Part shown: positions 11,673 to 46,090 of the stretch, in pieces
Layout: every line of letters begins with the position of its first letter
Numbering within the stretch: the stretch's first letter is position 1
DNA from: Escherichia coli
GTDB taxonomy: Bacteria; Pseudomonadota; Gammaproteobacteria; Enterobacterales; Enterobacteriaceae
Length of the DNA: 64,000 nt
Assembly (NCBI RefSeq): GCF_041886205.1
Contig: NZ_CP169029.1
Direction: 5' to 3' (one strand)
Program-made: the position numbers and the translations under genes
Notes under the pieces: model-generated
What the model was told of the DNA's origin: nothing
Database searches by the model: none
The model's input: only the letters and a program-made list of their open reading frames with translations

Positions 11673-13280
11673 CGTGATACTCCTGTTAATGAGCCGCTTC
11701 AGGCAGGACAAAACCCATCGCCGCATCGATAAATAATCTTTCGTCCATCAGTTTGAGTTCTGGCGAAATCACTGGGGTGAAATCCATTTTGTCGAGAATA
11801 TCTTTTTGTAAATCGACGCCAGGGGCGATTTCGATTAAATGCAGTCCGTCTTCTTTCAGCGTGAATACTGCGCGCTCAGTGATATAACGAACATCCAGCC
11901 CTCGCTCGAGAGCGATTTTTCCGCTAAAAGTAATTTCCGGTAGTTCCCGAATAAATTTATTTACCCGTCCTTCCTGGACGATATTCAATTTGCCGTCGGT
12001 AATTTCTGTTTTTAAACTGCCCGCAGTTAATGTGCCGCAGAAAACGATTTTCTTCGAAGTGGCACTGATATCAATAAATCCACCGGTGCCCATGATTTTA
12101 CCATTGAATTTATGCACGCCGACGTTACCGTGCTGGTCGACTTCAGCAAAACTCAAATAACAAACATCCAGACCGCCACCGTGATAAAAATCAAACTGGG
12201 ACGTCATATCCAGAATGGCGCGGGTATTCACGTTCGCGCCAAAGGCGATCCCCTGTGAAGTAATTCCGCCAATCGGACCTGTTTCTACCGTCAGAATAAA
12301 GTCATCAGCACAACCTTCTTCTCGGGCGACCAGGCCAATGCCGTCAGCAATACCGACGCCGACATTCCCCACCGCGCCTTTACGCATTTCGAATAATGCG
12401 CGCCGCGCAACTAATTTACGTTGGTTTAGGGGCAGGCTAAGTTTGGTACTGTCATCAAGGGTGAAGTCACCAGAAATAAAGCGGTTAACCGGTGCACCGC
12501 CATACAGTTGGGTTTGATCCGGATCGACCACCACAATATCCACCAGATAACCCGGAATACGGACAGATTTAGGATGCAGCGTGGCTTTCTTAACCATTTT
12601 CTGCACCTGCATCATCACAATACCGCCGTTATTGTGCACCGCCTGGGCAATAACCAATGCGTCGAGATACATCACCTCATCTTCAAAAGTGGCGTAGCCT
12701 TCGCTGTCGCAGGTGGTAGCGCGAATGAAGGCGATATCTGGCGCAATCGCTTTGTAATAGAGATATTCTTTGTTATCAAACTCGACCAGTTTAATCAGGT
12801 CTTCTTTAGTGACTTCATTCAGTTTGCCGCCTTGCTGGCGTGGATCGACAAATGTCCCGATGCCAATATCACTAATAATACCAGGCTGGTGGGCTGCGGC
12901 GGCGCGTAAGGTTTGTGTAAGTACACCTTGTGGATAGTTATAAGCAATAATTTTATTTTGTTCTGCGAGATCAGAAATACGCGGCGATTGTCCCCAGTGA
13001 CCGCATAATGCCCATTTCACCAGACCTTCTTGCGCCAGCGGACTAATACCGCGATCGGCGCGATCGCCAAGCCCTGTTGGACTAATAATCGATAAATTAC
13101 GTGGCGTTTGAGTCTGTTTATATTTATCAGCAAGAGCAGTAATTAACGTGGTGGCTTCCAGAATACCGCCGCCAGCGCCTAACACACAAAGTGTTGCTTC
13201 GTCGGGAATATAATTCACCGCTTCCGGTGATGCTGCCAACTTACTGATTTAGTGTATGATGGTGTTTTTGAGGTGCTCCA

Positions 13281-13556
13281 GTGGCTTCTGTTTCTATCAG
13301 CTGTCCCTCCTGTTCAGCTACTGACGGGGTGGTGCGTAACGGCAAAAGCACCGCCGGACATCAGCGCTATCTCTGCTCTCACTGCCGTAAAACATGGCAA
13401 CTGCAGTTCACTTACACCGCTTCTCAACCCGGTACGCACCAGAAAATCATTGATATGGCCATGAATGGCGTTGGATGCCGGGCAACCGCCCGCATTATGG
13501 GCGTTGGCCTCAACACGATTTTCCGCCATTTAAAAAACTCAGGCCGCAGTCGGTAA
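13281..13556 (+). CDS. insA: IS1 InsA (transposition inhibitor / N-terminal part of transposase)
   Basis: 91-aa [25 protein letters not shown]...; A6C frameshift motif (TTAAAAAACTC) near its 3' end. Confidence 0.9.
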
Positions 13557-13978
13557 CCTCGCGCATACAGCCGGGCAGTGACGTCATCGTCTGCGCGGAA
13601 ATGGACGAACAGTGGGGCTATGTCGGGGCTAAATCGCGCCAGCGCTGGCTGTTTTACGCGTATGACAGGCTCCGGAAGACGGTTGTTGCGCACGTATTCG
13701 GTGAACGCACTATGGCGACGCTGGGGCGTCTTATGAGCCTGCTGTCACCCTTTGACGTGGTGATATGGATGACGGATGGCTGGCCGCTGTATGAATCCCG
13801 CCTGAAGGGAAAGCTGCACGTAATCAGCAAGCGATATACGCAGCGAATTGAGCGGCATAACCTGAATCTGAGACAGCACCTGGCACGGCTGGGACGGAAG
13901 TCGCTGTCGTTCTCAAAATCGGTGGAGCTGCATGACAAAGTCATCGGGCATTATCTGAACATAAAACACTATCAATAA
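13475..13978 (+). CDS. insB: IS1 InsB reading frame (expressed as InsAB' transposase by -1 frameshift)
   Basis: 167-aa ORF recognised as IS1 InsB. Confidence 0.88.
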
Positions 13979-14202
13979 GTTGGAGTCATTACCCCGCTTC
14001 CTGTGCCGACAGGACCGGCACTCGTCCATTAATACGAGGTGGTTTTACAGGTTTCATTGTTAATTCCTGATTCAGGTGTGATTTTCCCTACGCCAGATGG
14101 AGAATTAGCGCACAGAGACTCACGAAATATTTTTATTAAATACGGTTAACTATATTTTTTTTAGTTCGGCGGGGGAGGGTATTCCCGCCGAAATATTATT
14201 GC

Positions 14203-40912: not shown

Positions 40913-42517
40913 TTAATCAAACGAAAGACGCCGACGTGCACGGGATGCAGGTTTTACGACCGCCCGAGCCATCGCCTCACCAATTTCTGCACATGCCGTA
41001 AGTCCCTGAACGAAAGGCTGGTCGTGCATCAACCAGGGCAACGCGCCGAACGCTACGCGTCCACGAATATCTTCGGGTTGCTGTAACGTATAATCTTCGC
41101 CAACATCAGGGATTTCATCCCCTGTTTTCTGTAATTGCTCGCGTAGCCCAGGGAAAGGAATATCTTTCACTTTAAGCGGACGCTGTCCGCGGGCATCAAT
41201 AAAAACGTCAAACGAGTAGCTGTTGTCTTCCGTTTTCAGGACGGTGCGCGACTCATTAATTTCCATTTCGTAGTCTTCACCGAGGGCGAGAATATGAATG
41301 ATCCCCGCTTCACGTAAGGCCAGCAGCCGACGAATAGACTCTGAAGGGATTGCCGCATAATTATCGATAAAAACCCGGGTAAGGCCTTTACTGAACCGTT
41401 TATGGTCGTGTTCATTCAGATGTGGAACAATTTCCTGTACGGCTTCATGCAGGCGCAGAATGACATAACGCCAGGGAACAGTATGTTTTTCTCGTTTATT
41501 GCGTTCGACTTCCTGGAGATTTTTTTCTGCCCAGTCAAATGGGTCGCGTTGTTTGCGCTCGGCAAACCAGGCTTGAGCAAAGGAATCGACATTCAGGCTC
41601 TCTAAGGCTATGCGTTGGCTCCAGTCTGGATCAGCAAACTTGATTTCCTCTACTATCAATCTAAATACCCGATCCAAAAGGCCCTCTTCGCCTTTTTGAA
41701 TCTCAGCATTTAATGCCTGATCGGTGACAATGTGTAAGGACTCGTAGGGAATAGGGCAATAGAAATCGGCTTCGGGTAAAATACCCGTGCGCGACATCAA
41801 CGTGATATTTAGCTTTTCACTTGCGTTATCGCGGTGAAAAACGACGTGTTGTTTATCATCTTCAATGAACGAACCATGCTGAATAGCCACTGCCATTGCC
41901 GCATCCAGTCCGCTCAAGGATGTTCCCATAATACCCACGTTACACGCATCGACCTTTGCTTCCATCAGGCCTGACCACGGGCTGGGAAAATACGTTCGGG
42001 TTGCTTCTTCTTCATCAGGCCAGACGTGACCCGTGGCAATCACCGCTAAATCAAACGTCTCGCTGGGTAAACCCTGATTTGTAGCGAGCATGACGCCAGC
42101 ATTTGTAATTTGCAGATCGGTAACCTGGCATGATTCATAAACAGCCACTGCAAATTTTTGCTTTCGTGCCTGGTCTACTAATCGTAAAAATTGATCGCGG
42201 AAATATTCGCCCAGCAGAATTCGCGGTAAAAACTGACGATCGTGCAAGGTTTCTTTTTTAACGCCATAACGCTGGAGATGGCTGGCTTCTTGCTTTTGTA
42301 GCCATTCGAGATACGTACAATTAATCGGCGGTATTTCAATACTGGCAATATTTGCCAGCATCATTTTTGAGTTTTCCTCATCACTGTATGGCATCCCGAC
42401 ACCGGCCTCGTCAGCCTGCTCGAAGATAGAAATAGAAAGTGGAGTTTGTTGCTGTAGAAGCGAGAATAAGGTGTAGATCCCCGTAGGCCCGGCACCCACA
42501 ATAGCAATTTTTTTCAT
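40913..42517 (-). CDS. ydhS: FAD/NAD(P)-binding protein
   Basis: 534-aa ORF with N-terminal GAGPTG dinucleotide-binding motif. Confidence 0.88.
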   Translation of the reverse strand: MKKIAIVGAGPTGIYTLFSLLQQQTPLSISIFEQADEAGVGMPYSDEENSKMMLANIASIEIPPINCTYLEWLQKQEASHLQRYGVKKETLHDRQFLPRILLGEYFRDQFLRLVDQARKQKFAVAVYESCQVTDLQITNAGVMLATNQGLPSETFDLAVIATGHVWPDEEEATRTYFPSPWSGLMEAKVDACNVGIMGTSLSGLDAAMAVAIQHGSFIEDDKQHVVFHRDNASEKLNITLMSRTGILPEADFYCPIPYESLHIVTDQALNAEIQKGEEGLLDRVFRLIVEEIKFADPDWSQRIALESLNVDSFAQAWFAERKQRDPFDWAEKNLQEVERNKREKHTVPWRYVILRLHEAVQEIVPHLNEHDHKRFSKGLTRVFIDNYAAIPSESIRRLLALREAGIIHILALGEDYEMEINESRTVLKTEDNSYSFDVFIDARGQRPLKVKDIPFPGLREQLQKTGDEIPDVGEDYTLQQPEDIRGRVAFGALPWLMHDQPFVQGLTACAEIGEAMARAVVKPASRARRRLSFD

Positions 42518-42903
42518 TGTTACTTACCTGTACGCATTCTTTCGAATTTAGTGTTATCAGATAAGTTTGGTTGAGATTTTTAGAATTTGAGAAATTTCAG
42601 ACAGGGATGAAAAGGGCGCTAACCGCCCTTGATTAAATTCTGTCAGGCGAGTTTTGCCTGATTGATTTGACTCAGTGGCTCATTGACATCGAAAACTTTG
42701 GCGACAACTTCCTCAACGCCGAGATTTTTAAGTCGGGCAGTATGTTTTTCCAGATAGGCAAGGGCGCTTTTTTCATCAGTAAAAAGATAGATCCCACCGG
42801 CTTCGTGGTTCTTTTCACTTTCTGTCCATACCTTCCACAGAAAACCAGGTTCCTGATTAATTGAACCGCCCCGGGTTTCCTGGAGAGTGTTTTATCTGTG
42901 AAC

Positions 42904-43794
42904 TCAGGCTGCCAGATCATCGTTTCCGATGGAAGCATAATAAGCTTTTTCTGCTTCTGCCGGAGGAGTATGGCCCAGCCTTTCCAGCAATCGTCGATTG
43001 TTATACCAGTCCACCCACGTGAGTGTGGCCAGTTCCACTTCTGCACGGTTTTTCCAGCTCTTACGGTGTATTACCTCCGCTTTGTAAAGACCATTGATGC
43101 TCTCCGCCATCGCGTTGTCATACGAGTCGCCTGTACTTCCTGTTGATGCCAGTAATCCGGCTTCCTTAAGCCGCTGTGTGTAGGCCAGCGATACATACTG
43201 AGAACCTTTATCACTGTGATGGACCGTGCCGGACGGTCGACGGGCCCATAACGCCTGCTCCAGTGCATCCAGCACGAATGTCGTTTCCATGGACGATGAG
43301 ACCCGCCACCCCACGATGTATCCGGCAAACACATCAATGATGAACGCCACATAGACGAAGCCCCGCCATGTGCTGACGTAAGTAAAATCAGCCACCCACA
43401 GCTGGTCAGGTCGTTCTGCCACGAACTGACGGTTTACGCGGTCGCCTGCGGCAACGGCTTTCCGGCTGATGGTCGTACGGACCTTTTTACCCCGGAGAAC
43501 ACCGGCAAGTCCCATAACCGCCATGAGACGTGCCACAGTGCATCTGGCCACTCTGATACCTTCCCGTAACAACTGACGCCAGACTTTACGCACACCGTAT
43601 ACCTTGTGATTTTCATCGTATACGCGCTGTATCTCTTTCTTCAGCCAGTCATCGCGCTGCGCACGGGCACTGCGTTTATCCGGATGATGTCGCTGTTGCT
43701 GACAGTGGTAATACGTTGACGGGGCAATATGCAGTTCGCTGCATAGCGGTCCGACCCCGTACTGCTCACGCAGCTTATCCAGCAGTGGCATCAT
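42904..43794 (-). CDS. IS3-family transposase OrfB (DDE integrase core)
   Basis: 296-aa ORF; overlaps orfA 3' end at an A-run consistent with -1 frameshifting. Confidence 0.88.
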
Positions 43795-44117
43795 TTTTTC
43801 CAGAGGCGGTCGAACTCCGCCTTCGCAAAATAAGCGGAAGCCTGGCGAAGGATATCGTTACTGCGGCGCAGTTCACGATTTTCACGTTCCAGCTCTTTCA
43901 GACGCTGACGTTCAGCGGTGGTGAGCCCTCCATCACCGCCCCCGGTATCCCGCTCATGCTGGCGAACCCAGACACGCAGAGTCTCCGGCGTACAGCCAAT
44001 CTTTGGAGCAATGGAACAAATTGTCGCCCATTGTGAGTCATATTCGCTCTGACTTTCCAGAACCATACGGACTGCCCGTTGACGGACTTCGGGGGAAAAA
44101 CGAGTATTTTTAGTCAT
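43791..44117 (-). CDS. IS3-family transposase OrfA (HTH)
   Basis: 108-aa [26 protein letters not shown]... Confidence 0.88.
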
Positions 44118-44368
44118 CCTGTTTACCTCTTTCTCAGGAAGTTTAGTCTCCAGGATTCCCGGGGCGGTTCAAATCGACTCAGCAAGCGGTTTAAGCTGCT
44201 CAGCCATTGCGTCGCCAAATGGGCCATTAAAAGCAAAATGAAGTTGTAACAAAGTTGCCATAGCGATTCTCCTTCTGATAACGCATACGAAGACAGTGTA
44301 AATCTTTTAACGTATTGGATACAGAGAAGAAACAGAGGGAAAAAGGAGAAGACCAGATTAAGAAAATC

Positions 44369-44445
44369 TGGTGCGTCCGAGTGGACTCGAACCACCGACC
44401 CCCACCATGTCAAGGTGGTGCTCTAACCAACTGAGCTACGGACGC
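44369..44445 (-). tRNA. valW: tRNA-Val (GAC anticodon)
   Basis: Reverse complement reads GCGTCCGTAGCTCAGTTGGTTAGAGCACCACCTTGACATGGTGGGGGTCGGTGGTTCGAGTCCACTCGGACGCACCA; valV/valW assignment by position; +/-1 nt. Confidence 0.9.
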
Positions 44446-44449
44446 AGGA

Positions 44450-44526
44450 TGGTGCGTTCAATTGGACTCGAACCAACGACCCCCACCATGTCAAGGTGGT
44501 GCTCTAACCAACTGAGCTATGAACGC
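44450..44526 (-). tRNA. valV: tRNA-Val (GAC anticodon)
   Basis: Reverse complement reads GCGTTCATAGCTCAGTTGGTTAGAGCACCACCTTGACATGGTGGGGGTCGTTGGTTCGAGTCCAATTGAACGCACCA; +/-1 nt. Confidence 0.9.
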
Positions 44527-44833
44527 AACGTTGTAGGTGACAACGGGGACGAATATTAGCGGCAGAGTGGGAAGGTGGCAAGAGGCAAAACGTAATTTTC
44601 TGCGCTATTTCGACCGTTTGCAGAGCTTTTAAGCAAATTGGCTATATTTTGTTGATTTGCAAGGGCGATTTTTATTCAGGATCGCATTTACATCTGATAC
44701 AACCCAATAATTCGTGTATCAGAGTTTAAACAGAGTTGTTTGCCACCATCTCAAATCTGTCGTGGATAAATCCTCCGTAGCCTTTACACTTAGGTAGCAA
44801 TAAAGGCACACAGATGCAGCAAAGGAATAAATC

Positions 44834-46090
44834 ATGGGATCTGATGCGAAAAACTTGATGAGCGACGGGAATGTGCAAATTGTTAAGACCGGCGAGGTCA
44901 TTGGCGCGACGCAACTTACTGAAGGCGAGTTGATTGTTGAAGCTGGCGGAAGAGCCGAAAATACCGTGGTCACGGGGGCTGGCTGGTTGAAAGTGGCAAC
45001 CGGTGGGATCGCCAAATGTACACAGTACGGTAACAATGGCACGCTATCGGTCAGCGACGGTGCCATTGCCACAGATATTGTTCAGTCCGAGGGAGGCGCA
45101 ATTAGTCTCTCTACGCTCGCTACGGTTAATGGCCGCCATCCCGAAGGTGAATTCAGCGTTGATCAGGGTTATGCCTGCGGTTTGTTGCTGGAAAATGGCG
45201 GTAACCTGCGTGTACTGGAAGGACATCGCGCGGAAAAAATCATTCTCGATCAAGAGGGCGGCCTGTTGGTTAATGGGACAACCTCAGCGGTCGTGGTAGA
45301 TGAAGGTGGTGAATTGTTGGTGTATCCAAGTGGGGAAGCCAGCAATTGTGAGATTAATCAGGGCGGCGTTTTTATGCTGGCCGGGAAAGCCAGTGATACG
45401 TTGCTTGCTGGTGGCACCATGAATAATCTCGGTGGTGAAGACTCTGACACTATTGTTGAGAATGGATCCATTTATCGTCTGGGGACGGATGGCCTTCAGC
45501 TCTACAGTTCCGGTAAGACGCAAAACCTGTCCGTGAATGTGGGTGGTCGGGCTGAAGTGCATGCCGGTACGCTGGAAAATGCGGTAATACAAGGTGGGAC
45601 AGTGATCCTGTTGTCACCCACCAGCGCGGACGAAAATTTTGTCGTAGAGGAAGATCGCGCACCGGTTGAACTGACCGGGAGTGTTGCATTACTGGACGGC
45701 GCTTCAATGATTATTGGCTATGGCGCAGATCTGCAACAATCAACGATTACTGTACAGCAGGGCGGTGTATTGATTCTCGACGGCAGTACGGTAAAAGGTG
45801 ACAGTGTCACTTTAAATGTTGGTAACATCAATCTAAATGGCGGAAAACTGTGGCTAATCACTGGTGCGGCAACGCATGTGCAACTGAAAGTGAAACGCCT
45901 GCGCGGAGAGGGAGCGATTTGCCTGCAAACCAGTGCGAAAGAAATTTCACCTGACTTCATCAATGTGAAAGGGGAAGTTACCGGTGATATACACGTTGAG
46001 ATAACAGATGCCAGTCGGCAAACTCTGTGTAACGCACTGAAACTACAGCCAGACGAAGACGGGATTGGCGCAACGCTCCAGCCTGCGTAA
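44834..46090 (+). CDS. ydhQ: autotransporter-passenger-like (AIDA-type repeat) protein without evident beta-barrel
   Basis: 418-aa ORF, Gly/Thr/Val-rich degenerate repeats. Confidence 0.85.
   Translation: MGSDAKNLMSDGNVQIVKTGEVIGATQLTEGELIVEAGGRAENTVVTGAGWLKVATGGIAKCTQYGNNGTLSVSDGAIATDIVQSEGGAISLSTLATVNGRHPEGEFSVDQGYACGLLLENGGNLRVLEGHRAEKIILDQEGGLLVNGTTSAVVVDEGGELLVYPSGEASNCEINQGGVFMLAGKASDTLLAGGTMNNLGGEDSDTIVENGSIYRLGTDGLQLYSSGKTQNLSVNVGGRAEVHAGTLENAVIQGGTVILLSPTSADENFVVEEDRAPVELTGSVALLDGASMIIGYGADLQQSTITVQQGGVLILDGSTVKGDSVTLNVGNINLNGGKLWLITGAATHVQLKVKRLRGEGAICLQTSAKEISPDFINVKGEVTGDIHVEITDASRQTLCNALKLQPDEDGIGATLQPA

Follow-up and report, generated by a model that had tools for sequence, protein, structure and literature searches.

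The locus considered here raises the question of why the ydhR gene of an Escherichia coli strain is interrupted by a mobile element near a pair of tRNA-Val genes, and whether anything other than chance brought the element to this site. The window, i.e., the whole stretch of DNA analyzed (64,000 nucleotides of contig NZ_CP169029.1), contains the element at 42862..44171 (1310 bp), with its transposase genes on the minus strand, like ydhR and valV-valW. The sequence TGAACCGCCCCGGG occurs in exactly two copies within the 64-kb window, at 42862-42875 (plus strand) and 44158-44171 (minus strand), and the terminal inverted repeats reach 25–26 nt at 92% complementarity. The termini read TGAACC...GGTTCA, that is 5′-TG...CA-3′ as in the IS3 family, and the length lies within the range of about 1.2–1.55 kb of that family. 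The AAT duplication of 3 bp is also in line with the IS3 family (3–4 bp in the group of IS629). The features that delimit the insertion are:

42859..42861: target-site duplication, copy 1, AAT on the plus strand, equivalent to ATT, Ile30 of ydhR; exact in the empty-site reconstruction
42862..42886, plus strand: IRR, TGAACCGCCCCGGGTTTCCTGGAGA, read from outside to inside
44147..44171, minus strand: IRL (orfA-proximal), TGAACCGCCCCGGGAATCCTGGAGA, starting with 5′-TG; 23 of 25 positions pair with IRR
44172..44174: target-site duplication, copy 2, AAT; exact in the empty-site reconstruction

When the element and one AAT were excised in silico, the remaining 1,687 bp were found, letter for letter, in E. 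coli 6EVA, whose ydhR locus is uninterrupted, and the restored ydhR encoded the K-12 YdhR protein sequence. This exact recovery of the empty locus and of the K-12 protein means that the simple insertion is real and not a chance likeness. Judged from the perfect duplication and the intact coding sequence of the restored ydhR, the insertion is recent. The original prediction had described a 1310-bp element with terminal repeats at 42862-44171, interrupting ydhR after codon 30 with an AAT duplication and carrying an orfA/orfB pair. Coordinates, length and termini hold, the exact empty site exists in 6EVA, and both reading frames are present:

42904..43794, minus strand: orfB, 296 aa, in the -1 frame with respect to orfA, with HTH_21 and a DDE (rve) core
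43791..44117, minus strand: orfA, 108 aa, helix-turn-helix DNA-binding protein (Pfam HTH_Tnp_1, 49 bits), the N-terminal part of NCBIfam transpos_IS3

Concerning the identity of the element, the NCBIfam model transpos_IS3 (NF033516) scored 314.6 bits against a cut-off of 160, and OrfB matched Pfam rve with 97 bits, its catalytic D136, D195 and E231 lying in conserved motifs (DNAMAES among them) with the second D some 35 residues ahead of the E, a spacing that characterizes the IS3 family. The exact fusion of OrfA and OrfB is WP_085959878.1, an "IS3-like element IS629 family transposase". At the nucleotide level, identity was 1310/1310 to copies in the E. coli chromosomes 582, 23AR0151, 32-4 and 210221272, and dozens of plasmids, from E. 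coli and from Salmonella, also carry copies of 100% identity. A fragment labelled IS3411 family by NCBI was 99.8% identical, and the copies that the authors of the Shigella plasmid pCP301 annotated as IS629 reached 98.9% and 98.5%. The copies that NCBI labels IS1203 family (O157-type) were 96.1–96.3% identical, so that the window element differs from them by 49–51 substitutions. The NCBI family label on identical copies varies, being IS3, IS629 or IS3411.

In ISfinder, IS629, an element of Shigella sonnei, is classified in the IS3 group of the IS3 family, and isoforms share at least 95% nucleotide identity with the reference element. The window element resembles IS629 in its length of 1310 bp, TG...CA ends, inverted repeats of about 25 bp, 3-bp duplication, and 108-aa orfA followed by a 296-aa orfB in the -1 frame; it agrees with the ISfinder entry (1310 bp, OrfA of 108 aa, OrfB of 296 aa). 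IS1203 and IS3411 have been handled as isoforms of IS629 (PMC3271280). The isoform name IS629 is assigned here by proxy, from the pCP301 copies and the NCBI protein names rather than from the type sequences X51586, M19532 and U06468. The IS629-like, IS3-family identity that had been predicted is supported by NCBIfam, Pfam, the NCBI-named OrfAB and the pCP301 copies, and the element is not a new one.

The two reading frames overlap in a window (element positions 315-381) that contains both U_UUU_G and A6, and the region matches a known type of frameshift signal:

43720..43836, minus strand: ALIL (apical loop-internal loop) frameshift-stimulating pseudoknot, Rfam RF01497, with stem-loop 1 at 43805-43821
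43794..43799, minus strand: alternative candidate slippery run, A6 (AAA AAA TGA), at the end of orfA
43826..43830, minus strand: candidate slippery site for the -1 shift, U_UUU_G; 4 nt (GCGA...CGAA) separate its end from stem-loop 1 downstream, a hairpin of 17 nt

RF01497 was matched over its full length (model positions 1-117) with 120.2 bits against a gathering score of 50 (E = 5e-32). As read off the Rfam alignment, the apical loop of stem-loop 1 (GUUCGA) could form six pairs, including one G-U, with the internal loop of stem-loop 2 (UCGGAC); with respect to the RF01497 consensus, one pair is switched on both sides (C-G to U-A) and another has become a wobble (U-A to U-G). The IS3411 hairpin has 17 nt, and the spacing rule between slippery site and hairpin is 4–10 nt (PMC4066793). 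For the ALIL frameshift signal of IS3411, Mazauric et al. 2008 is the work cited in PMC5009743 and PMC4066793. The window element is like that signal in having a 17-nt stem-loop 1 that starts 4 nt past the U-run, with stem-loop 2 placed 45 nt further 3′, and differs from it by a second candidate slippery site, the A6 at the orfA stop. The join in the current NCBI annotation is at U_UUU_G, whereas an older NCBI "IS629 family transposase" protein uses A6. Going by sequence, the slippage position is ambiguous between these two candidates.

The consequences for the neighbouring genes follow from this arrangement:

42643..42861, minus strand: 3′ fragment of ydhR, with the duplicated codon 30, codons 31-101 and the stop (Pfam ydhR, 106.7 bits)
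44172..44261, minus strand: 5′ fragment of ydhR, codons 1-30, followed by the stop TGA at 44169-44171 from the IS end
44369-44445, minus strand: valW, tRNA-Val(GAC), upstream of the insertion, in the centre of the putative IS629-family hot region
44450-44526, minus strand: valV, tRNA-Val(GAC), likewise upstream and in the centre of that region

The first three bases of the element (TGA) provide an immediate stop, so YdhR, a putative monooxygenase, would be cut to a product of 30 residues and the upstream tRNA genes would be left untouched. A promoter-like site for valV-valW lies at 44581-44553 on the minus strand, with predicted transcription towards ydhR. The distance to the two tRNA-Val genes had been given as about 200 bp, and the gap to the nearer one, valW, measures 197 bp. 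On the other hand, the proposal that the element could affect the "upstream context" of these genes was mistaken: since valV-valW are on the minus strand and are read towards ydhR, the element lies downstream of valW. According to PMC2190699, ydhR is not co-transcribed with valV-valW. An Rfam match to HPnc0260 at 44245-44407, antisense to valW, was dismissed as tRNA-driven.

Two other accounts of the insertion have to be weighed. One is an error of assembly, in which a repeat was collapsed or wrongly placed in ydhR; IS copies are a classic source of mis-joins, and many draft assemblies end exactly at the ydhR/IS junction. However, both junctions are intact with a perfect 3-bp duplication, the excised locus reproduces the empty one over its 1,687 bp, and analogous simple insertions occur, at this site as well as nearby, in independent complete genomes, which leaves this account with a practically negligible probability. 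The other is that the element is an O157-type IS1203, or a Shigella/EHEC marker, and that the window comes from an IS-expanded pathogen. IS629 and IS1203 are indeed famous from O157:H7 and Shigella, and an IS1 is present 29 kb away, at 13226-13993. Nevertheless, this IS1 and the ydhR element make merely two IS in 64 kb, the pCP301 copies of IS629 are closer to the element than the IS1203 family copies are, and the exact variant is common on plasmids of both E. coli and Salmonella. In addition, the flanks (24.9 kb on the left and 11.8 kb on the right) are about 100% identical to the non-EHEC E. coli 6EVA, LHM10-1, CP52E and wlxctx60, with genomes of 4.6–4.8 Mb; the E. coli with matching flanks come from human faeces, pig, bear and cattle, and O157 flanks are about 1% different. 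The window insertion was not found in the complete RefSeq E. coli genomes, nor did a scan of GTDB representative genomes for the exact 40-nt junction give a match. Altogether, a pathogen origin is very unlikely.

The background had been predicted to be IS-rich, Shigella- or EHEC-like, and not K-12. Only the exclusion of K-12 survives: flank identity to MG1655 is 98.8%, and K-12 is reportedly devoid of IS629 (bioRxiv 10.1101/2023.06.07.543989), whereas flanks and element both speak against Shigella or EHEC. By sequence comparison, there is very little doubt that the element is one intact copy of the known IS629 (IS3 family; IS629/IS3411/IS1203 isoform group, nearest to the IS629/IS3411 branch), recently inserted at ydhR codon 30 in an ordinary commensal-type E. 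coli lineage. A large proportion of E. coli genomes carry IS629-family sequence, with a median of about five matched places per genome, two of them being flanks. The case is a reminder that IS629 is not limited to Shigella or EHEC; as such, an IS629 knock-out of ydhR is routine, and useful as a strain marker.

What is less routine is the position. Comparison of the ydhR locus across strains, which had been proposed with the original prediction, found it empty in 6EVA and hit repeatedly by IS629-family elements in other genomes, a recurrence that the prediction had missed. Of 5,426 complete E. coli genomes, about 30 had an IS629-family end in the 1.25 kb downstream of valW, among the matches listed (one place per record, with the pieces per record capped), counted per genome and not per phylogenetically independent event; the position/orientation combinations in this ydhR-side interval were at least 21. 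Upstream of valV, IS629-family elements were found in nine further genomes, again among the matches listed. On the same basis, 20 matched control intervals gave three genomes together, or about 0.15 genomes per interval: one genome in seven unselected core intervals, none in six intervals downstream of other tRNA operons, and two, corresponding to one event, in seven AT-matched intervals. These direct controls replaced a uniform-density estimate (some 20,000 chromosomal IS ends in 27 Gb, or about five per 1.25 kb) by which the enrichment would have been only mild. Three of the first eight same-region matches, taken at first as the same insertion, were all at other positions, 12 or 69 bp off.

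The site of the window insertion deserves separate mention. At ydhR nt 90, inverted insertions belong to at least three flank/IS haplotype groups, and the window contributes a direct one; the same 3-bp target (ydhR nt 88-90) has thus received at least four independent insertions, which include both orientations. A second reused 3-bp site is at ydhR nt 157-159. The insertions at ydhR nt 1, found in four genomes, may share a complex ancestral structure. Further clusters lie in ydhS and between valV and ydhQ.

On balance, and with some reserve, we favour the view that valV-valW/ydhR/ydhS is a hot spot for IS629-family elements, some 200-fold above matched core intervals, with individual 3-bp sites hit more than once, independently and in either orientation. 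The same pattern could be produced by selection for loss of ydhR, or of ydhR-ydhS, with no preference of the transposase for this target. Of the ydhR-side insertions, about two thirds are indeed within the ydhR coding sequence (306 bp) or right at its beginning, and a conditional cost of ydhR is conceivable, as it is without known function. Against selection, large insertions or deletions in ydhR occur in just 19 of 5,425 genomes, 16 of them by IS629-family elements, and other abundant families (IS1, IS2, IS5 and others) are essentially missing from the gene. Moreover, the insertions of the valV-ydhQ and ydhS clusters do not inactivate ydhR, and insertions of both orientations recur at identical 3-bp sites. 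It seems reasonable to consider the selective account improbable, and to keep target preference as the working interpretation. The site choice of the window insertion was probably not random.

No description of a valVW-ydhR hot spot was found in the literature searched, and according to PMC3271280 IS629 has no specific hot spot. Several possible causes were discarded. AT-richness alone does not suffice, as the seven AT-matched intervals, equally or more AT-rich, had a single event, and nearness to any tRNA operon fails with the six other operons. Rho-dependent termination was rejected because the leuQPV operon, terminated in the same way as valV-valW (PMC2190699), has no insertion in its downstream interval. 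Ungapped and gapped scans of the locus for likeness to the IS ends gave nothing above the window background; there being no IR-like sequence in valVW-ydhR by these scans, targeting beside IR-like sequences of the IS911 type fails to explain the hot spot. A common target consensus was sought in the short flank extensions of top BLAST matches, and the flanks of 19 insertions show none that is clear beyond AT-rich duplications. The motif CTGAGTC-N4/5-AATCAGG is repeated and present at two used sites, which makes it a candidate local targeting signal.

Strong target preference is possible in IS3-family transposases, since IS1397 and ISKpn1, members of this family, target the palindromic units of REP/BIME. 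Unlike those targets, the present one is a 1.6-kb coding and intergenic stretch around valVW, with insertions at many positions. As to the route of transposition, IS911, IS3 and IS2 have the gene layout and the DDE transposase in common with the window element, and IS911 and IS3 also the 3-bp duplication. By analogy with them, a programmed -1 frameshift would give the OrfAB transposase, by which one 3′ end would be joined to the opposite end of its own strand; an IS circle, its two ends abutted, would then be copied out by replication and would integrate via a 3-bp staggered cut. For IS629 and IS1203v, the assumed pathway is copy-out-paste-in via a circle (bioRxiv 10.1101/2023.06.07.543989).

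The insertion sites of IS629 serve for typing O157 and other STEC, under the assumption that an identical site means common descent. Because the same site has been hit independently at least four times, that assumption fails. If the hot spot is true, the IS629 transposase or the circle-integration complex would recognize some feature of the DNA of the locus, or of a protein or structure bound to it. This would account for the repeated disruption of ydhR in particular, and a locus preference of about 200-fold would be a concrete substrate for the study of target choice in the IS3 family.

The 1310-bp element at 42862-44171 was delimited correctly by the original prediction, with TGAACCGCCCCGGG at both ends. 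This sequence has two exact occurrences in the 64-kb window, one per element end and in opposite orientation, and according to a repeat finder the terminal arms stretch to 25-26 nt with 92% complementarity. The expected 3-bp duplication, AAT, is present at 42859-42861 and 44172-44174. Removal in silico of the element and one AAT yielded a 1,687-bp sequence that matched exactly the uninterrupted ydhR of E. coli 6EVA, and the restored gene codes for the K-12 YdhR protein, a putative monooxygenase of 101 aa and unknown role. The insertion after codon 30 was thus recovered as proposed: since the element begins with TGA, ydhR stops directly after Ile30. With an exact empty site, a perfect duplication and no other lesion in the target gene, the insertion is real, simple and recent. 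The predicted orfA/orfB pair was also found, within the following arrangement.

Features of the element
44171-44147, - strand: IRL, inverted-repeat arm
44117-43791, - strand: orfA, 108 aa, with a Pfam HTH_Tnp_1 match
43836-43720, - strand: ALIL pseudoknot, full-length Rfam match, 120 bits (gathering score 50)
43794-42904, - strand: orfB, 296 aa, -1 frame, with Pfam HTH_21 and rve
42886-42862, - strand: IRR, inverted-repeat arm

The assignment to the IS3 family and to IS629 was upheld by the NCBIfam transpos_IS3 match of orfB (314.6 bits, cut-off 160) and by the identity of the element to the two author-annotated IS629 copies of Shigella flexneri pCP301 (98.9% and 98.5%). The catalytic residues of orfB occur in the usual motifs, D136 (WVADFTY), D195 (HSDKGSQY) and E231 (DNAMAES), with 35 residues from the second D to the E. 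The element is matched at 100% identity by copies in the E. coli strains 582, 23AR0151, 32-4 and 210221272 and on numerous plasmids of E. coli and Salmonella. It is 99.8% identical to a fragment labelled 'IS3411 family' by NCBI, in contrast to 96.1-96.3% for NCBI-labelled copies of IS1203 (O157 type) and 95.0-96.0% for the variant of STEC 2013C-4974 and its relatives. IS1203 and IS3411 are regarded as isoforms of IS629, with subtypes 55-60 nt apart (PMC3271280). On these identity figures and the isoform literature, the element is best placed as IS629 in the broad sense, in the IS629/IS3411 branch and not in the IS1203 branch, an isoform name that takes annotated or labelled copies, rather than ISfinder entries, as references. 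The element is, then, a known IS and its insertion an ordinary one.

The reading frames of orfA and orfB overlap at element positions 315-381, where there are two slippery runs: U_UUU_G, with 4 nt between its end and the 17-nt stem-loop 1 downstream, and A6, at the orfA stop codon. In IS3411, a 17-nt hairpin begins 4-10 nt past the motif and its apical loop pairs to a more 3' internal loop; U_UUU_G and stem-loop 1 agree with this published geometry (PMC4066793; PMC5009743). According to the Rfam alignment, GUUCGA in the loop of stem-loop 1 is able to pair with UCGGAC of the stem-loop 2 internal loop, one pair being altered on both sides relative to the consensus. NCBI lists both alternative 404-aa fusion proteins: joined at the U-run, the protein is the current 'IS3 family transposase', on 379 contigs; joined at A6, it is WP_085959878.1, 'IS3-like element IS629 family transposase'. 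The U-run seems the likelier slippage site. The identical or near-identical element in three comparison loci (L001, L034 and L035) is variously labelled 'IS3 family', 'IS3-like element IS629 family' and 'IS3411 family' transposase, and the same DNA carries both joins in NCBI annotation.

The route of transposition is taken from IS3-family biology, as summarised in bioRxiv 10.1101/2023.06.07.543989; the ends, the duplication, the two ORFs, the DDE domain and the frameshift signal are what is seen here. A -1 frameshift would produce the OrfAB transposase, one 3'-OH would attack the other element end on the same strand, replication would copy out a circle with abutted ends, and this circle would integrate with a 3-bp stagger.

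Concerning the tRNA-Val genes, the predicted distance of about 200 bp is correct (197 bp from valW), while the supposed risk to their upstream context is not borne out. The genes are on the - strand, with a promoter-like site at 44581-44553, and as transcription runs in the order valV, valW, ydhR, the element lies downstream of them. It has been reported that ydhR is not co-transcribed with valV-valW and that the valV-valW transcript ends by Rho-dependent termination (PMC2190699). As the transposase genes and ydhR share direction, read-through from the ydhR promoter into orfA could occur. An Rfam match to 'Bacterial antisense RNA HPnc0260' (44245-44407, + strand, 112 bits) covers the antisense strand of valW and of the valW-ydhR spacer. 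It is strongest in the tRNA acceptor/T-arm region and so is probably tRNA-driven, not a genuine antisense RNA.

Nothing indicates the IS-rich, Shigella- or EHEC-like background that had been suggested. The flanking sequence is 98.8% identical to K-12 MG1655. On the right, 11.8 kb match 6EVA without a difference; on the left, 24.9 kb are nearly identical to wlxctx60, LHM10-1, CP52E and 6EVA. The genomes of these isolates, which come from human faeces, pig, bear and cattle, measure 4.6-4.8 Mb. Many E. coli genomes and plasmids contain IS629-family sequence. The 768-bp copy of IS1, at 13226-13993, is a separate insertion near the 5' end of ydiF, with the 8-bp direct repeat CCGCTTCC. The close relative VE-T9 has IS1 in the neighbouring ydiP-like gene instead, so these are separate events.

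When the ydhR locus was compared across related strains, as had been proposed, the gene was intact in all four flank-matching isolates, and other strains had IS629-family elements nearby, inserted elsewhere in ydhS or ydhR, in the tRNA genes or in the valV-ydhQ spacer. None of the 5,426 complete RefSeq genomes has the insertion of the window, and its junction gave no match in the GTDB representatives. Exact look-up of the truncated 30-aa YdhR yielded hits in 62 public-collection blocks. Junctions could be read at eight loci, and at these the IS follows the same codon 30 in the orientation opposite to that of the window. These loci form three flank haplotype groups (0-3 differences within and 10-38 between, over 3 kb) and carry two IS-end variants, and their full IS copies are only 95-96% identical to the window element. 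Counting the three inverted groups and the direct copy of the window, the 3-bp target at codon 30 has been used independently at least four times.

A census was made with composite BLAST queries, in which 150-bp anchor segments were combined with the terminal 150 bp of both IS ends; a match joining the two kinds of segment marks an IS end at most 1.25 kb to one side of the anchor.

IS629-family ends next to each anchor
Just upstream of the ydhR ATG: about 30 of 5,426 genomes
Upstream of valV: 9 genomes, five positions
Seven non-essential core genes of the window, combined: 1 genome
Six intervals downstream of other tRNA operons, combined: 0 genomes
Seven intervals equally or more AT-rich, combined: 2 genomes, one lineage

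In per-genome counts, roughly 30 genomes in one interval versus 3 genomes in 20 control intervals represent an enrichment of about 200-fold; relative to the crude genome-wide density of IS629 ends, it is about six-fold. The ydhR-side insertions, in both orientations, lie at nt -11, 1, 7, 12, 90, 103, 145, 159, 190, 192, 284, 285, 330, 381, 393, 455, 505, 606, 895 and 1002 from the ATG. Offset 159 is occupied in direct orientation in 582 and TUM9812 and in inverted orientation in VR50. In 582 (L001 3494-4803) and TUM9812 (L005 994-2303), site, orientation and duplication (GAT) coincide; their IS copies nevertheless show 21 differences, which implies either independent hits in the two strains or gene conversion between copies of the IS. 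Secondary rearrangements also arise at the locus: CP027597.1 has lost the 3' part of ydhR in an IS-adjacent deletion of ~240 bp, CEC96047 has an IS in place of one tRNA-Val gene plus 97 bp, and ISCro1 truncates the IS629 copy that DLI.6n has at the start of ydhR.

A general tendency to lose ydhR does not account for these insertions: only 19 genomes among 5,425 have the gene broken by a large insertion or deletion and, because IS629-family elements account for 16 of the 19, the effect is specific to this family. The hot region corresponds to 1.5 kb of AT-rich DNA (GC 0.39-0.45) that flanks the GC-rich tRNA genes and takes in the ydhQ promoter region (window about 42100-44870 without the IS). 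AT-richness alone was rejected as the cause since the AT-matched intervals were cold, as was proximity to a tRNA operon, the six other operons being free of insertions. A Rho-dependent terminator fares no better, since leuQPV has the same terminator type (PMC2190699) yet is cold. A scan of the locus for resemblance to IS ends found none. Two similar sequences in ydhR, CTGAGTCGATTAATCAGG (nt 78-98, window 44164-44184 region) and CTGAGTCAAATCAATCAGG (nt 272-292, window 42657-42677 region), have each received IS629-family insertions, at corresponding places in the motif, and may constitute a local target motif. Among other tRNA operons, the K-12 lysT and valU operons share a duplicated tail, nearly identical over the 150 bp after the last tRNA gene (L028 2654-2803, downstream of lysQ; L031 6330-6479, downstream of lysV) and comprising a hairpin terminator and about 120 bp.

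A survey of IS629 observed no specific hot spot (PMC3271280), and our search found no literature linking IS629/IS1203 with ydhR, ydhQ, ydhS or valVW; two further candidate papers make no mention of the locus, and an earlier description outside that search is possible. Recurrent, family-specific targeting of the valVW-ydhR locus is well supported as a pattern and is the only feature that merits follow-up.
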